Assembly: GCF_028641065.1 (NCBI RefSeq)
Contig: NC_073381.1
Location: 25,358,001-25,421,816 of the forward strand
DNA: 63,816 bases
From: Leucoraja erinacea
Lineage: Eukaryota
Reading direction: 5' to 3'
Below are positions 11,850 to 33,298 of the stretch, one piece after another. The notes beneath the pieces were generated by a model. That model was not told where the DNA came from. It did not search any database and saw nothing but the letters and a program-made list of their open reading frames with translations. A program made the position numbers and the translations under genes. The first letter of the stretch is position 1; each line of letters begins with the position of its first letter.

Positions 11850-12050
11850 CGTAGAAACAAAGAACCGCAGATGCCGGTTAGTACACAAAAGAACACAAAA
11901 TGCTGGAGTAACTCAGCGGGTCAGGCAGCATCTATGGAGAATATGGATAGTGACTTTTCAGGGGGTCTTGACCCAAAAAGTCACCTAGCCATGTCCTCCA
12001 GAGATATTACCTGACCCGCTGAGTTACTTCAGCACTTTGTGTCCTTTTGA
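11850..12050. mobile_element. Palindromic Penelope-derived element
   Basis: Inverted arms gctggagtaactcagcgggtcaggc / cctgacccgctgagttacttcagc; attgcact on both sides. Confidence 0.75.
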
Positions 12051-12109
12051 GGATTGCACTTTGCGACGACCTTTTTCACTAACGTGGTACACAGGAAATA
12101 ATAACCCAA

Positions 12110-13720: not shown

Positions 13721-13917
13721 TATTAATTGTTAACATTTGTTAAAATTAACGTTTTCGATCATCGCATCCACTATTTCATTGCTTGAGAATGTCACCCATT
13801 TGATTTTTGATCGTTCATCGGAATTCGAGGGGATCCATCTACATATGGATGGTATTATTTCCTGGCTGTTATTCTACTAATGAGGAAGATAACATCAATA
13901 TTTGCATTCTGTTGCAG

Positions 13918-16393: not shown

Positions 16394-16732
16394 AGCCCCT
16401 GTCCCACTGTGCGAGGTAATTCAAGAGTTCTCCCGAGTTGCTCTGATTTGAACTCGGAGAATTACAGTAATGGCCGTTCGTAGGTACTCGGGGCTCTCGT
16501 GGACATTTTCCAACATGTTTTTCAACATGTTGCAACATGTTGAAAAATCTTCAGGAGTCTTCCCGGGCTTACCGCGTTTCCCAAGTACCTGCTGTTAGCG
16601 ATACGAGCCGCTAAGAGATGTCCCCGAGCTCCAATGTATCCGCTACGTACTTTCTACATGCTTCCACGAGTTTGATTTTTTTAAAAAAACTCTGGAGTAC
16701 TCTTGAATGAATTCCTACAGTGGGACAGGGCT
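16394..16732. mobile_element. PIF/Harbinger-type MITE
   Basis: TIR AGCCCCTGTCCCACTGT / ACAGTGGGACAGGGCT, flanked by TAA and TTA; homologous to 38719-39048. Confidence 0.85.
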
Positions 16733-21952: not shown

Positions 21953-21979
21953 TTTGTGTACTGAATAACTAAGAATCCA

Positions 21980-22172
21980 AGATAGACACAAAATGCTGGA
22001 GTAACTCAGGGTCAGGCAGCATCTCTGGAGAAAAAAGATGGGCAACGTTTCGGGTCAGAACCCTTCTTCAGACTCATCCTTTTTCTCCAGAGCTGCCTGA
22101 CCCGCTGAGTTACTCTGACATTTTGTGTCCATCTTTGGTATAAACCAGTATAATAAGGTAGTTCCTTTCTAC
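21980..22172. mobile_element. Palindromic Penelope-derived element with intact minimal hammerhead core on the minus strand (22040-22074)
   Basis: Minus strand reads AGTCTGAAGAAGGGTTCTGACCCGAAACGTTGCCC. Confidence 0.8.
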
Positions 22173-22807
22173 ACAGACTATGAATCCAATGCACTTATAT
22201 AAAAGTTGGGATATTTAAATCTGCTTGCGGCCTGGATAATCAGCAAATCATTTTTCAGTGACTTTGGAACTCAGAAAAAGTGAACTATTTCCCACAAGCT
22301 GTGCCTCTTTGTTTGTACCTCCCAAGCAGTCGAACCGCCACTGCGTGTCATTTGATCATAAATTAACCTTGAAATGTCATTAGCTCACCAGCTACAACAT
22401 GCGCTTGTTTAAGAGACCACTGCTTGTAAGTGGTCTGGCACTGTGCTTCAAATAAAGGACAGGAGGTCACCACTAGCATAGCCAGAGAACATATCTAATG
22501 ACTAGCTGCTTATTCCATGTGTTTATAAGTATTTGTATTTATGGATCAAATGTCAGTTTTTTAAATTATTTCTGTTTAAATCTGTGGACCTCCAAAGTTT
22601 TGGAACAAAAGTTCAAACCTCAGCTATAGCTACGTTTTAGCAGAAGTGTTGAGGCAGATCTAGCAGTATGACAGTCATTAACTCGCTTTCTATAAAGCAT
22701 GAGAACACTGTTGCAGTGTGTTCAGCCATTTCAAAGCGCTCTGAGTCCCCATCAACTCCAGTTTCTTCTACGCTAATGTTCCAAGATTCACTACCTAATG
22801 CAGATAT

Positions 22808-24609: not shown

Positions 24610-24729
24610 GTATTTTTTATTCATTTCAAGGTCACAGGCACAAAATCTAGCTGAATACCTGATTGTAAATTTGTCTCTGCCAACCAACATGATTTTCTTC
24701 AATGCAATTTACTCAAATTATATTTTTCT

Positions 24730-24967
24730 TAGTGTTTAAGAAAAACTGCAGATGCTTGAAAATCGAAGGTACACAAAAAAGCTGGAGAAACTCAGCGGGT
24801 GCAGCAGCAGCTATGGAGCGAAGGAAATAGGCAACGTTTTGGGCCGAAACCCTTCTTCAGACGGGTTCTGAAGTCTGAAGAAGGGTTTCGGTCCGAAACG
24901 TTGCCTATTTCCTTCGCTGCATAGATGTTGCTGCACCCACTGAGTTTCTCCAGCTTTTTTGTGTACC
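24730..24967. mobile_element. Palindromic Penelope-derived element with two opposed hammerhead-like cores
   Basis: ~100-bp inverted arms; GTCTGAAGAAGGGTTTCGGTCCGAAACGTTGCC at 24873-24905; 12-bp TSD TTATATTTTTCT. Confidence 0.85.
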
Positions 24968-26465
24968 TTATATTTTTCTCACATTAGGTCATTTATTTAT
25001 TTCCATCAAAATGACAATTTTCAACTCCGCTGCAACCCGTCCCAATTATTTAACTTTTCTTTTGCTCCTAGTCTGACCAGATTAGGTGAAAGTAATGTGT
25101 AACCATAAATACTGAATCTGATATGTTTTGTCTTCGGAGTGCAATGATGACATTGAGATTTTTGGATGTACAGACCAGATTAAGCCTAGGATTTGAACCA
25201 GGACGAGTTGATCTCAAGTTCAGGGAGAAGCAGGCGGTTAAAGGGTGTTAAAGTTTCATCTTGGTGCAAGAAGCAAAATGGAAAAATGAGCGCTAGGTGA
25301 AAGTCTGTTGAGTAGATGATTGGGTTCAGATGTGATGGGTTCCCGATGGAATTCCTTGACATTTGTTTTGTAAATTATTATTGTACTATTGAGGCACCTC
25401 GGGTATCCTGATACCATGAATAAGCATATTTACTGAAATATGTACCTTGTCATTCTTCACAGGATGTTTCCCTTGTAATATGCCTATTTAAGTGAACAAA
25501 GGTACCACATCATTTATGTTTTATTTATTAATTTGTGTGTTGCCAGAATCTAAGTGTGTGTGATGTTGTTGCAAGCAACATTTTTGTTGTACCTCTCCCT
25601 CACCATACACGTGGTTCTGACAATAAACTTGACTTGAGGACAAAATGATATCTTCAGATGCAGCAAACCTGGAAGATCTGAAATAGTTAGACTAGGATGC
25701 ACAGATCTAAGATATGCAATAGACCAGTGCTGCAAATGAAGAAGGCCTTTTCTGCACCGTGTCTGCATCTAATATGATACTAAGGTAAAATAATCTTAGA
25801 GGCCTGCACAAAATCCATATCCATCCATTCCCTGTAATTTGTCCTTAGCTTTATATAAATCTTGGGTTTCATACAAAACTTTGATGTTACACGTAAATCT
25901 ATTGTTCAAAAATGAAAGCGTGACAATGGGTCATTTTCTAACACTAAGGAGCCAGAAAAATTCAATTTCATGCGGCTAAACACCACTACTGGTGAGACAG
26001 TTTATCCAATGCTCAGTATTATAAATATGGACAAAACTTTACAATGATTAAAGTTCACAAAAGGAAATTTACTCAGAAAGTGAAAATGTGACATCATAGA
26101 TATTTTATCCGTTTTATCATCGTTTAAATTCAAGCTGTGATCACACCTTTGCACAGGCATTAATCTGAAGAGCTGTGTTATGGGTGAGAAGTGATTTAAC
26201 AAAAAAAAGTGCTTCTATTGACAAGAGGTCTCACTTCAGATTAGAAATTTGATACGTTCAAACCTTATGATAATAATAATAATAATACATTTTATTTATG
26301 GGCGCCTTTCAAGAGTCTCAAGGACACCTTACAAAAATTTAGCAGGTAGAGGAAAAACATGTAAGGGGAATGAAATAAATAGTAGAGACATGACTAGTAC
26401 ACAAAGTAAAGACAGAATACAATTCAAAACACAATATTTTTAATTATTTATGTTTTCATTACTAG

Positions 26466-27587: not shown

Positions 27588-29183
27588 TATATCTCTTCCC
27601 TATCACCTTAAGCCTATGGCCTCTGGTTTTGGATTCCTCTGACTTGGGGGTAACAGGCTATGAGTGTTTACTTTATCCATTCCTCTGATGATCTTCTTCA
27701 CCTCAATAAGGTCAATGAAAGATAATAAGCAGGTTTGGCATTCCGAATAAAATTGAATAAAATAAAATTGTACATTCCAGCATTTGCTTACATCACCTGA
27801 GTTACTGCCCCTTATTCCAGGGCATTCAATAGTTGATTAAAGTTCATAAACCTGTACAATTCTCACAATTAGAACATAGAATAGTAGTGCAGAGGGACAT
27901 GTCCTTTGGTCCCCATTGTCCATGTCGACCATGATGCCAAGTTAAAATATTAATGTCTGCCTGCATGTGATCCAAATCCCTCCATTCCCTGCACATCCAT
28001 GTGCCAATCCTGTATTCTGCAACAATCCAAATGTTCAGACATTTTGCACCTGACACATCTATTTACAACTGACAAAAGACTTGTACCACTATTCTAATAA
28101 CTCGCTCCTTGTAAATTATTTTCTCTCCAACCTTTAATGCATTGAAGGGTTCAATATCGTGCTTAGGATTCTTACTCTAGACATGTGATGGGAACATTGC
28201 CATTTGACCATGATATTTTCAGGGACCTCTGCTGGCCACATGTGGGCAGCAATATACAAGGCTGCACCTTAAGCTCTGAAATTGTTGCACAGCTCAGCTA
28301 GCCGTTTAAATCAATATTGACATCTGTATATTCCATTGCAGGGACAAAGTGGCTTGAAAAAGATACCCTGGTTTTTAAACTTGATTTATAAATGAAATAA
28401 TGAATAGCAAATAAAATAGCATGGGTAAACTGTATGCCATATGCTAAAACTAACATATGTGACAGTTTTGTCACTAGATTATAGGATGTGATAGCACTGG
28501 AATAGGTGCAGAGGAGGCGCGAAGATATTGCCAAAGCTTGTGAATTATAGTTATAAGAATTCAAAGGCTTGTCTAAATTTTGGGGGCTTTTTTGGAATAG
28601 AGACCTCTGAGATTATGACAGGGATGTACAAAGTGAGCAGGGGAAACGTACTTCCTTTTGCAGAAAGGTCAATAACCAGGGAACACAAAATAATCTACAG
28701 AAAAATTCAAAGGGAATGAAGGAGAGCTATTTTGCACCCATGTGTACTTGGGGTTTGGAAGGGTAGTGGAGATGGTAACTTTCTTTACACTTAAAGGTTA
28801 TGAAGGGGAGCTGGGGAATGGAGACCATTTCATAATTTGATTCAGTATTGGTTGGCATGTTTATGATGGGCCGAGTAACTCCCGCCTGTGCTGCACTTTT
28901 CCTGGGATTCTATATGCCGTTGTCATTCCCTGATCCATCCACAATTAAAATTATGCAGCATATGAAGGTCTAGATTTATTGCAGAGAAAGAAACGTCGGA
29001 AATGTATTGAAATCTTTTGATATTTTCTTCCAGCAGCAATTTGTATGCAGACATTATAACATGGGGTTGTTCACGTAATATTAATTTTAATGGGGAAATA
29101 TGAGGCTTTGTAAAGCTGTTAATGTCTTATTAAATATAACAGAAATCAAAGTGCTCACTTTTCAGCACTGCCCTCCCCTGCAG

Positions 29184-29575
29184 CTGTTGCTGGAGTACGA
29201 GAGGTAGAGAATAAGATTTACCTGCTGGTGAAGGAAGAGAAAAGATACACTGATGCCCATGAGTATTGTCGTGACCGAGGAGGACTTCTCATAATGCCGA
29301 AAGATGAGGCAACTAATAGCCTCATTGCATCTTATATCAGCGAAGCAGGGCTCAGCAGAGTGTTCATTGGTATTAATGACCTGGAGGAGGAAGGTCGCTT
29401 CATCTTTGCAGATGGATCACCCTTGCTGATCTTCAACAAGTGGCGGAACGGAGAACCGAACAATGCCTACGATGAAGAAGATTGTGCAGAAATGGTATCC
29501 TCTGGAGGGTGGAATGACGTGGCCTGTCATATTACAATGTATTTTGTCTGTGAATTTGACAAAGATGTACCTTAA
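29184..29575 (+). CDS. COLEC11: Collectin-11 C-type lectin domain exon
   Basis: (A)[21 protein letters not shown]...[40 protein letters not shown]. Exons sum to 816 nt = 271 aa + stop. EPN/WND mannose-type motif. Confidence 0.97.
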
Positions 29576-29852: not shown

Positions 29853-30159
29853 ATTAGGGAGGTGTGTATAACCAGAGACCAATCTGAGATCAATTGTTTC
29901 ACAGTATTGCATTAAGAAAAATTAACACTTTTTCAGTACCTAAATTTATTTTTCGTTCTATATAATGGTTTGAACTTTTTGATTGATTATTGAATACTGT
30001 GAAGATAAGCTTATTAGCTTTGAGTTGCCAAAACCCTGAATCTCCACGCCACGAACTCCTAAATCTTGGGTAACTGGTCTGAAATTACAGAGTTTTAGTT
30101 TAGTTTATTATTGTCAACTGCAACAAGGTACAGTGAAAGGCTTTATTGTTACATTAGCA

Positions 30160-30400
30160 AGCCAAAACATAGTCTAGGCAACTGTTTTGCCGAACACTTG
30201 CGCTTTGTCCACCAAGGCCTGTTGGATCTCCTGCTTGATGACCACTTCCTTCACTCACCTTCCCATTGCCATACCCACCTTTCTGTCCTTGGCCTCCTCC
30301 ATTGGCAGAGTGAGGTCGTACGCAAACTAGAAGAGCAGCATCTCGCATTCCACACGGGTAGCTGACAATCCAACTGTATGAACATTGGATTCTACACATT
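30160..30400 (+). mobile_element. Penelope-like element GIY-YIG endonuclease fragment
   Basis: Translation LGNCFAEHLRFV..HFLHSPSHCHTHLSVLGLLHWQSEVVRKLEEQHL matches the PLE endonuclease C-terminal pattern (RFAEHL..HF..SH...RKLEE). Confidence 0.8.
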
Positions 30401-31559
30401 CTCTACTTGTCTTGATGCTTTGTGGCAAGAATGGGCATGAGCCACAGGAAGAGCAGAATAATATAAGGGCTGAATTTTACAGGAGGCATGGACCTTCAAT
30501 GGAGAATTGGGGAGGTGGGGTGGGGACACAAGGACATAGAGATCTGGGCACATGTGTGAATAGTTCATTGGAAATGACAGGGCAGATTGAGAAAGTGGTT
30601 AAGAAAAGGAAACTGGATCATGGACTTTATGGCAAAAATAGAGAGCAGGAAACACTGATTCAGCCACATTGATAGTTGAATTCAGGTCTGGGCAGCGCAC
30701 TGCATGAGAGATGTGAAAGTTTCAGAGGGAGTACAGAAGGGATTTACAAATGATGGCAGTAGTGATGGGACTTAGTTATGTGGAGAGCGTGGACAGGATG
30801 GGATAATTTTTCTTAGCCCAGAAGTGGCATGTGGAGACCTGAGTGAGGTATTTACAATTATGATGGGAATGGACAGAGTAGATAAAAACTATTCCCATTT
30901 ATAGAGGGTTCAAAAACTAGGATGTGGAATGAAGATGTGTAAAAGAAAACAAATGGAATGAAGAAAATGTATTTGAAATAACGACTGGCTTAGGTTGGCA
31001 ATGCAGCACCAGGGAGTAGTGAAAGCAGATTCAAGTGTAACATTGAAAAGGGAGTGGAGTGTACGCATGTGCGGGGCCTTTCCAGAGTGTGCGCATGTAC
31101 GTGGTCTCGAGCCCATGAGGCCTGCGGAATCAGCGATATTTTCCTGACGCATTGAAGTTATGGATTACAGAAATTAGTTGCTTAAATTGTTGTGAGGCAA
31201 ATGAAACTTTTACGGTACTGGTAATTTACTTAAACTTTATTTAAGCTTTAAGCAACTCTACTGTATTGTCCATTAGAATTTCACAGTTGAATGAGACAAA
31301 ATGGGCAAGGTAGAATGAATTCAAAAGAAACATGTACTGAATGCTGTAATAAACTAAAATATACTTTCTTCCATGTGTACTTATTTTAAAAATGGAAATA
31401 AAATATTCTTTTTATTGTTATACTTTGTGGAAATATTTGATTTGATTTTACACCGTATAAAAATTACCATTATGTGTTCCAGAATGCAACATTGTCTCAC
31501 ATTAGTAACACCTTTACATTCCTCTGTGTTCACTAACAAACATTCTTCACTTATCTTTG

Positions 31560-31763
31560 TTTAAGAAGGAACTGCAGATGCTGGAAAATCGAAGGTAGAA
31601 AAAAAAGCTGGAGAAACTCAGCGGGTGCAGCAGCATCTATGGAGCGAAAGAAATAGGCAACGTTTCGGGCTGAAGAAAGGTTTCGGCCCGAAACGTTGCC
31701 TATTTCCTTCGCTCCATAGATGCTGCTGCACCCGCTGAGTTTCTCCAGCTTCTTTTTGTGTAC
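31560..31763. mobile_element. Palindromic Penelope-derived element with hammerhead core
   Basis: CTGAAGAAAGGTTTCGGCCCGAAACGTTGCC at 31670-31700; 15-bp TSD CTTCACTTATCTTTG. Confidence 0.85.
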
Positions 31764-32214
31764 CTTCACTTATCTTTGATGGGTTGATTTTTTATTTTTC
31801 CACCTGTTGGGTGTGGTATCCTCAATACCACCCTTACTTTAATTAAACTATATGCAATCTACCACTGCTAAAGCTGCCACCAAGATTATATCCAGTTTTC
31901 TGTTGATATTTCCAGCAACCATTTGCTATTTCTGTTTATTCTGGTTAAAGGGAGAGTTGGCTAGTGGGAGGACAGTGGCATTTGAAGAAGAGTCACAGAC
32001 ACTGCTAGAATTTCTCTGTAGAAAGTGTGTTCATATTGCTTTGTCCCCCGCTGGTGCCTCTGGCTTTATTTTTCCCACCCTGCTCTCCATTCCGAATCCC
32101 AAGGCCGACACAATTCATTCAGTATTCAGTATTTCTTTAATATCATTTTCACTGAGTACTCGCATATACAGAGGAAACGAAAACACATTGCTCGATCGGT
32201 TTCCATTCAGTGTA

Positions 32215-33298
32215 TAAATAAAAAAAATAAAAAAAGGATAAATACATAGAGCTTTAAAAACAAATTAAAATTACCATGTTTAAAACAGAAAGTAGGCCTA
32301 AAATTAACAATATAATAAAAACAGACATTCTGATCGACAGTGGCTTTGGCTTTTACAGTGGCTTTACTTTGGCAGGTGCCCAACTGTCAAAGTATGGGCG
32401 GGGTTGGATGTGTTGGTGAGCGATATTTTGGGAGGGGACAAAGTCCGTTAATCAGTCTTATTGCCTGTGGGAAGAAGCTGAGGAGCATCCTGCTGGTTTT
32501 GCAGCTGATGCTCCTGTACCTCTTCCCAGATGGCAGAATGGAGAAGATGTGGTGTGATGGGTGGTAGGGGTCCTGGATGATGGAGATGGCTCTACTGATG
32601 CTCCTCTTCTTGTATATCTCCAGCAGGAAAGGGAGTGGGGCACCAATAATCCTGCTGGCTGTCTTCACTATCCTGTTTAGTTGATATTGTTCGTAAGCCT
32701 TGCAGCTCCCGAACCAGGAAGTGATGCCGTAGGTTATTATGCTTTTGATTGTGCCCCTGTAGAAGGTTCTTAGATGGGCAGTGGGGAGACCTGCTTTCCT
32801 TAGTCTCCGGAGAGGGTGGAGTTGCTGTTGGGCTATTTTGACCACTGCTGTGGTGTTGGTCATAGAGGTCAGGTCATCCGACAGGTGGAGTCCTAGGAAC
32901 TTCACACTGCTGACCCTCTCCACAGCAGCTCCATCAATGTACAGCGGTGTGTGGTGTTGTTTTCCCGCCCTCCTGAAGTCGACCACCATCTCCTTAGTTT
33001 TTTTTTCCACATTAAGAGTGAGGTTGTGGGATCTGCACCATCCTGTGAGCAGCTCCACCTCCATCCTGTACGCCGACTCATTATTGTCGCTGATGAGACC
33101 CACCACTGTTGTGTCATCAGCGAACTTGTTGATATAGTTGTTACTGAGTCTAGCAGTACAATCATGTGTAAGCAGACTAAACAGCAGGGGGACACAGGCC
33201 TTGGGGTGAGCCAGTGCTCACGGCGATGGCTCTTGATATCGACTGCCCACCCTGACTGTCTGCTGCCGTTGTGATAAAACGTTAAGGACCCAGTTGCA
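32215..33298 (-). mobile_element. Rex1/Babar LINE RT C-terminal fragment
   Basis: Translation KFADDTTVVGLISDNNESAYR..WCRSHNLTLNVEKKTKEMVVDFRR..FLGLHLSDDL..FFPQAIRL. Confidence 0.9.

Follow-up and report, generated by a model that had tools for sequence, protein, structure and literature searches.

The window analysed here, a stretch of 63,816 nucleotides from the skate Leucoraja erinacea (NC_073381.1, positions 25,358,001 to 25,421,816), contains a collectin gene on the + strand, with Gly-X-Y exons at 13917, 24537 and 26465 and a Lectin_C exon at 29123-29575, followed on the same strand by an allantoicase gene with exons at about 41720, 44207, 54504 and 58375. From the domains found and from synteny, we take these genes to be COLEC11 and ALLC. 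The insert of interest (24730-24967, 238 bases) is located in an intron, 120 nt past a collagen-type exon of the collectin gene, and consists of an inverted repeat that is asymmetric and flanked by target site duplications (TSDs) of 12 bp (Table 1). The repeat itself (24759-24862/24873-24976) spans 104 nt with 92% complementarity, and its predicted fold has an energy of -182.7 kcal/mol (z -24). It is not a symmetric palindrome, because a 36-nt tail is present on one arm only; in full-length tandem copies of the source element, this tail continues into the beginning of the ORF. Each arm is, by its sequence, a terminal repeat (pLTR) of a Penelope-like element (PLE) that has RT and GIY-YIG domains and is abundant. 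The pLTR is ordered as hammerhead motif, about 65 nt, the site S1 (position ~97), the 36-nt tail and the site S2 (~133), with the ORF starting about 30 nt further on. The short junction between the arms, to which junctions in L008, L010 and L029 are related, is from its composition likely to be the product of template jumps.

Table 1. Coordinates of the focal insert, the other head-to-head pairs and the PLE remnant in the window.
Feature	Coordinates	Strand	Remarks
Left TSD, 12 bp	24718..24729	+	Identical to 24968-24979
PLE tail, 36 nt (S1 to S2)	24730..24765	-	On the long arm only
Long arm, pLTR positions 1-97	24766..24862	-	Core dead, GAAA>AAAA at 24840; profile match to positions 1-132 including the tail
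Junction, 10 nt	24863..24872		Composed of two short arm-derived pieces
Short arm, pLTR positions 1-97	24873..24967	+	S1 end, without tail; profile match to positions 1-100
Minimal type-I hammerhead motif	24875..24902	+	CUGAAGA, bulged A, 4-bp stem II with tetraloop, GAAA, palindromic CG, UU
Right TSD, 12 bp	24968..24979	+	First 2 nt common to the arm end
Head-to-head pair, S2 left + S1 right	11856..12051		8-bp repeat at ends
Head-to-head pair, S1 left + S2 right, non-nested	21974..22174		Intact core on - strand; 13-bp TSD with 1 mismatch
Head-to-head pair, S2 left + S1 right, non-nested	31545..31778		15-bp TSD; intact core on + strand
Decayed head-to-head pair	50937..51147		TSD searched, none found
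Head-to-head pair, S2 + S1	51275..51483		15-bp TSD
Head-to-head pair, S1 + S1, dead core	51816..51965		Followed by a tail-to-tail fragment to 52009
Head-to-head pair, S2 + S1	52967..53265		14-bp TSD; 65-nt centre
Head-to-head pair, S1 + S2	54685..54920		TSD searched, none found
Decayed remnant of the GIY-YIG C-terminus from a related PLE, lacking a pLTR	30159..30404	+	tblastn 61%; blastn to L031/L032/L034

The initial annotation had described more than ten inverted-repeat insertions of this kind. The insertions are real, but the arm profile recognised 29 arms and nine head-to-head pairs in the window, and these are not symmetric palindromes, the tail being confined to one arm. Four TSDs were recovered exactly where they had been placed (12 bp at 24718/24968, 15 bp at 31545/31764, 15 bp at 51275/51469 and 14 bp at 52967/53252), in agreement with TSD-bounded insertion. 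The three cores listed as intact (24875 on the + strand, 31670 on the + strand and 22071 on the - strand) are the only matches of the family to CTGANGA...GAAA in the window. Of the opposed cores attributed to the insert at 24718, only that of the + arm is intact, its stem II having two wobble pairs; the - arm core has lost GAAA. A GGT/ACC pairing proposed around the core at 51863 could not be upheld: the junction supplies the GGT, the native upstream letters being CAGT, and the core itself is dead, with AAAA and a broken stem II. The pair at 31545 is situated beyond the lectin exon of COLEC11. The GIY-YIG remnant reported at 30160 does exist (30160-30404, with 61% identity to the C-terminal peptide of the source family over the aligned part, and no Pfam match when searched alone), but no pLTR follows it, and a role for it as the driver is not supported, since full-length copies are located elsewhere. 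Also identified in the window were an unrelated 330-bp element, a MITE-like DNA transposon derivative, in two copies (16397-16730 and 38718-39049) that have terminal inverted repeats of 43-49 nt, a tRNA-derived SINE-like sequence with a 51-nt inverted repeat (73%) at its flanks (56059-56391), and a 276-aa open frame on the - strand for the C-terminus of a LINE reverse transcriptase (32387-33217; RVT_1 E 3e-6).

The 30 best genomic matches were mostly solo copies of 135-140 nt, many of them with TSDs, or fold-backs. In the best matches that have native upstream DNA, the arm is located about 115 nt behind the end of a GIY-YIG ORF, and a genome search with the C-terminal GIY-YIG peptide produced 93,540 first-look candidates. 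The source ORFs are up to 1085 aa long and contain ADKG, YIDD, YIGET and C..C..H..H motifs; Pfam matches were obtained to GIY-YIG (E 2.6e-4, just under the cut-off) and, weakly, to RVT_1. A single ORF with RT and, at its C-terminus, a GIY-YIG domain, together with DKG and CCHH motifs, is the layout of an EN+ PLE. Full-length tandem copies (L100, L101, L105 and L106) have a unit of about 3.95 kb in which the pLTR and tail run into the ORF; they are partial tandems that form pLTRs, with the hammerhead inside the pLTR. The Penelope origin suggested earlier is thus borne out, in that the arms match the 3' end of full-length copies with RT and GIY-YIG. Several sub-families differ in the 3' UTR and share the pLTR end. 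The linker between RT and endonuclease reads CNRKKCNTC in L057-L066, that is, CX4CXXC, and Neptune is presumably the name for vertebrate PLEs of this linker type. A CX2-5CXXC linker between RT and EN defines the Neptune/Nematis clades (PMC8557442), and this motif places the source element with them.

Several features of individual loci were also recorded. Long ORFs, open over as many as 1085 aa and nearly identical to one another, occur in large number genome-wide, which indicates recent activity of the PLE family. Young copies are inserted within older copies of the family, near the pLTR or the endonuclease region (L004 1421-1640; L102 3425-3560 and 6675-7004), and L062 (2248-2640 and 4067-4660) contains a complex multi-jump cluster of arm fragments together with an arm-derived tandem array of 66 nt. 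Two full-length cDNAs end exactly at the tail end of the 5' pLTR, at body position 1-3 (L104 6835 and L107 3937), as if S2 also blocked an oncoming RT.

We determined the abundance of the arms in a genome sample of 60 stretches of 10 kb (600 kb) taken from the 31 largest contigs at round-number positions, a sample which is not strictly random. Arms were accepted at E<1e-3; with 12 weaker matches dropped, 283 of the 295 matches in sample and window were retained. The sample contained 254 arms (4.2 +/- 0.4 per 10 kb), corresponding to 4.0% of the sampled DNA, and 53 head-to-head pairs (0.88 +/- 0.16 per 10 kb), from which we extrapolate to about 0.9 million arms and about 190,000 pairs genome-wide. 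The 3' ends of the 283 arms are bimodal, with 119 at S1, 114 at S2 and 50 elsewhere. Close pairs in the 600-kb sample (gap of at most 40 nt) were head-to-head in 46 cases, tail-to-tail in three and direct in five. The 62 pairs from sample and window comprised 38 of type S1+S2, nine S1+S1, two S2+S2 and 13 with an unclassifiable end, so that S1+S2 accounts for 38 of the 49 classifiable pairs (31/41 in the sample alone) against an expected fraction of 0.49 (p=4e-5). The arms are non-nested in 13 of 38 sampled S1+S2 pairs. TSDs of at least 10 bp flank 21/62 pairs, as compared to 2/150 controls, and are mostly 13-17 bp (at least 13 bp in 24/30 young copies), lengths that are possibly slightly high because the finder may extend into microhomology at the ends. 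The unit of insertion is an inverted, 5'-truncated copy with a tail in the 30-40 bp range on one end and a TSD, and the junctions of the sampled pairs are varied.

Two junctions were counted genome-wide, one of 31 nt with 410 exact copies and another with 19. The first 30 of the 410 and all of the 19 served as young copies, which were picked by junction only. All classifiable young copies are S1+S2 (21/21 and 15/15, in total 36/36), with 13 of the 49 unclassifiable, and the tail occurs on either side at both the first junction (14:7) and the second (8:7). Sub-lineage marks agree between the two arms in 13/15 and 6/7 scorable copies, and the arms are non-nested in 7/15 copies of the 19-copy junction (type B). 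In the 33 of 49 young copies with two long arms, 13 non-CpG variants are common to both arms, as compared to a mean of 0.68 and a maximum of 6 in 2000 permutations. The centre letter of the commonest junction was considered as a marker of the first cDNA, and its 14:7 split gave no decision either way. A master copy with a fixed 5' leader was rejected: the leader seen in the top genomic matches is absent from the native unit, its junction is the one with 19 exact copies in both polarities, and its enrichment in the top matches is due to query bias.

The same pairing was observed on a larger scale. Among 46 loci with ORF sequence, ten have an adjacent inverted copy, of which seven are S1+S2, one is S1+S1 (L103) and two are unclear. 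In six of the seven kilobase-scale S1+S2 pairs, the tail-less (S1) arm is the longer one and the arms are non-nested. Arms of this size are 99.1-99.3% alike within a locus, as compared to 97.0-98.7% between loci.

Both the focal insert (24875-24902) and the young full-length copies carry the features published for minimal PLE hammerheads, as had been proposed, namely the core, the bulged base, a stem II with G10.1-C11.1 and a palindromic helix III; the putative cut in the insert would fall after position 24902. Dimer cleavage was reportedly described by Lunse and colleagues in 2017. In 23 copies in native context, 92.7% of cells are paired. The motif is retained in the young full-length copies, and intact in 27 of 120 stub cores. 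The G>A change in GAAA was found in 64/233 arms and the corresponding change at the next CpG in 65/241 (27% each), in line with the CpG decay suggested by the initial annotation. The covariation score of helices I and II over the 23 copies, which are too alike and too decayed, was 0.186 and was reached by 213/500 shuffles; pair 1 of helix I, in 2/23 copies, is the only pair with a two-sided change. In predicted folds, the probability of stem II is 0.0 at 24718 and 31545 and 0.998 at 21980, where the opposite arm does not extend as far as the core. For the native pLTR fold it amounts to just 0.005, and folding alone therefore rules activity neither in nor out. The Rfam check proposed earlier gave no match to a hammerhead family at E<=1, and the miRNA-type hairpin matches that it returned were generic, below the gathering score, and were set aside.

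The suggestion that opposed cores could yield self-cleaving pre-mRNA is not supported, since the antisense core is no ribozyme and stem II is not predicted to form in the hairpins at 24718 and 31545. Intronic arms in the window have no strand bias, albeit in small numbers (COLEC11, four sense and three antisense; ALLC, seven sense and nine antisense). The formation of long dsRNA in COLEC11 and ALLC pre-mRNA is plausible from the predicted hairpins. The hammerhead in these stubs is likely to be a dead passenger.

At the 5' side, 120 of the 254 sampled arms extend at least as far as position 3; just 26 of the 120 run on into the pyrimidine-rich native upstream sequence at a cut-off of 0.75, below which some shorter native pieces score. 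We infer that the simplest cause of this step is an RNA start at the initiator-like TCAGT. Three raw RNA runs under the same species label were inspected, the reads of which come from many copies. In X24, the depth is about 2000-fold on the arm and about 10 on either side, equal in both directions and with loose ends at the arm start; this step is not independent evidence, because genomic copies that are passively read would give the same. No pile of read starts was listed at the hammerhead start, and no pile of read ends was seen at the cut site in these reads, the latter being weak evidence. The polypyrimidine tract and CAG before the core resemble a 3' splice site. The idea that they mark an intron was rejected: a spliced-type upstream junction was found for none of 415 arms, three matches were unspliced, and no GT-AG joint was present among the 15 joints listed of 58. 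A similar 3' splice-site-like sequence precedes the core in Penelope of D. virilis (PMC4209133). The 3' UTR in L106 (4795-4914) and in older sub-families has at its beginning, where the ORF stops, a GT(A/T)AGT-like donor, and at its end, just before the core, a pyrimidine tract and CAG; it resembles the intron in the 5' UTR of Penelope, and no spliced product of it was found in the reads. Mismatches in the pooled reads (A>G at 7 places, T>C at 27 and C>T at 26) cannot be interpreted as RNA editing, as the reads stem from many copies.

The insert is probably a pair of short PLE terminal-repeat copies placed head to head between TSDs in a single insertion, in which both cut DNA ends primed RT on one RNA, at start sites 36 nt apart. 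The endonuclease would cut both strands in a staggered manner; one DNA end would prime at S1 and the other at S2, the cDNA of which would displace the S1 cDNA. Both cDNAs would run off near the hammerhead start, the likely 5' end of the RNA in the 5' pLTR, where the TCAGT is located. One cDNA could then jump onto or anneal to the other, often via a native 9-nt palindrome at this place, and repair would fill in the rest. The stubs would be by-products that decay neutrally, with the hammerhead as an inherited passenger. It is likely that the fold-backs are made anew at each insertion rather than spread as a self-copying unit, because of the S1+S2 pairing, the shared private variants, the non-nesting and the varied junctions of both polarities. 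A PLE protein has been found in vitro to cut and extend both strands and to start at two tail-bounding sites without a need for ribozyme cleavage, and it is predicted to be a dimer (PMC11167929). In the same work top and bottom strand did not differ in start site, which speaks against two-ended priming, as do the nine S1+S1 and two S2+S2 among 49 pairs, the kilobase-scale S1+S1 pair in L103 and the 13/49 young copies with a truncated or internally deleted arm, which aborted snap-back would give. Some of the rule-breaking pairs may carry old tails that the profile did not recognise. In short pairs, a subsequent deletion at the centre of the hairpin could also produce non-nested arms, and gene conversion of one arm by the other could account for the shared variants.

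An alternative which we consider rather unlikely is self-priming, where one cDNA (or antisense RNA) folds back and copies itself into the inverted arm. Self-priming from junction palindromes is the published reading of head-to-head PLE repeats (PMC3846280), the short 5' additions complementary to stem II in solo copies look like snap-back, some of the young copies without two full ends have truncated second arms, and variants shared between arms would be expected here too. However, an S1-primed cDNA has no tail to copy, and yet in 6/7 kilobase-scale, 13/38 sampled and 7/15 type-B pairs the arm ending at S1 exceeds the other in length; self-priming likewise fails to explain why the copy stops exactly at S1, where solo full-length copies end too. 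Snap-back is likely to occur as well, and to account for the truncated second arms, but it is insufficient alone, because a tail-bearing short arm sits beside a tail-less long arm.

It is very improbable that a self-propagating, non-autonomous mini-element is at work, MITE- or retrozyme-like, with one or a few fold-back masters transcribed, processed by the hammerhead and reinserted whole, despite the very high copy number, the exact repetition of two junctions (410 and 19 copies) and the derivation of animal retrozymes from pLTRs (bioRxiv 10.64898/2026.07.22.740005). The tail lies on either side at each junction and across several sub-lineages, by which this explanation is already largely refuted, the sampled junctions are diverse, the ends of the copies do not coincide with the cut site and the core is buried in the predicted hairpin. 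A MITE would have a fixed full unit with symmetric termini, and a retrozyme would consist of direct tandem repeats, each with a hammerhead, whereas direct close pairs are rare here (5 vs 46 head-to-head). The earlier proposal of a distinct mini-element family mobilised as a unit is accordingly not supported. That the intronic copies are functional in host RNA, regulating COLEC11 or ALLC through self-cleavage or dsRNA, is exceedingly improbable. The insert at 24718 does lie in an intron of the + strand collectin gene with a predicted hairpin of about 95 bp, and the family sequence is abundant in RNA reads, but the catalytic G12 decays like a neutral CpG, few cores remain intact, the arms in the window genes have no strand bias, covariation, in copies that are too alike and too decayed, does not exceed that of shuffles, and read ends do not pile up at the cut site. 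With two-ended priming as the preferred reading, we give even chances to a more general proposal, that the protein, as a dimer, uses a single RNA for priming from both target strands, at the two sites that bound the tail, that engagement of the 5' pLTR leads to a strong-stop-like run-off, and that this one mis-engagement wrote about 4% of the genome and some 190,000 perfect-hairpin inserts, in place of self-priming on an antisense template.

How PLE tandem and inverted repeats and the one-sided tail are formed is a named open question (PMC8557442). In the skate family, young and complete events whose ends can be counted number in the hundreds, and they predict that each insertion has a single S1 and a single S2 primer; if the general proposal is true, the stubs record, as fossils, the way in which Penelope elements form inverted repeats. 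For annotation purposes, about 4% of the sampled DNA is a single terminus that may be confused with MITEs, miRNA hairpins or active ribozymes. None of the papers listed by the literature searches described these stubs or priming from two ends in PLEs; Repbase, Dfam, subscription papers or supplements may already contain the family.

We compared the skate copies to known systems. The hammerhead resembles the minimal motifs of metazoan PLEs in the CUGANGA core, the bulged base before stem II, G10.1-C11.1 and the palindromic 15.2-16.2 (PMC4209133). In comparison with that set, the skate motif, a putative ribozyme, has a helix I of only 2 contiguous bp, as short as in the D. virilis variant, and a stem II of 4 bp. 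Metazoan PLE hammerheads mostly occur singly and dispersed, and in Schistosoma pairs on opposite strands, separated by 100-700 bp, have been noted (PMC4209133). Non-LTR retrozymes are likewise short, non-coding, pLTR-related and hammerhead-bearing, but are direct tandem repeats, whereas the skate copies are inverted pairs or solo stubs that end at RT starts and not at the ribozyme cut (bioRxiv 10.64898/2026.07.22.740005). As in PAc (Poseidon of Anolis), the hammerhead is located just upstream of two RT starts that bound the tail, and the ORF begins nearby (PMC11167929). PAc belongs to a different clade from the skate element, in which the CX4CXXC linker is present; in vitro it cuts and extends both strands with no need for hammerhead cleavage, and the main text of that study does not address inverted products and reports no strand difference in start site (PMC11167929).

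The closest likeness is to EN+ PLE insertions, which consist of an inverted, 5'-truncated copy with a one-sided tail of 30-40 bp (PMC8557442; Pen2a_Av in PMC3846280; PMC8969392). Shared with these are the head-to-head inverted pLTR, the tail on one end, a TSD that flanks the unit as a whole, junction palindromes and heavy 5' truncation (PMC8557442, PMC3846280). The skate arms differ from the insertions described in these texts in that they are only about 100-135 nt long and without ORF, and their TSDs are mostly 13-17 bp as compared to 8-10 bp in Adineta (PMC8557442, PMC3846280). The type of element is thus not new and its layout has already been published (PMC8557442, PMC3846280, PMC8969392); what goes beyond the layouts presented there is the extrapolated number of about 190,000 pairs, together with the S1+S2 rule and the non-nesting counted here.
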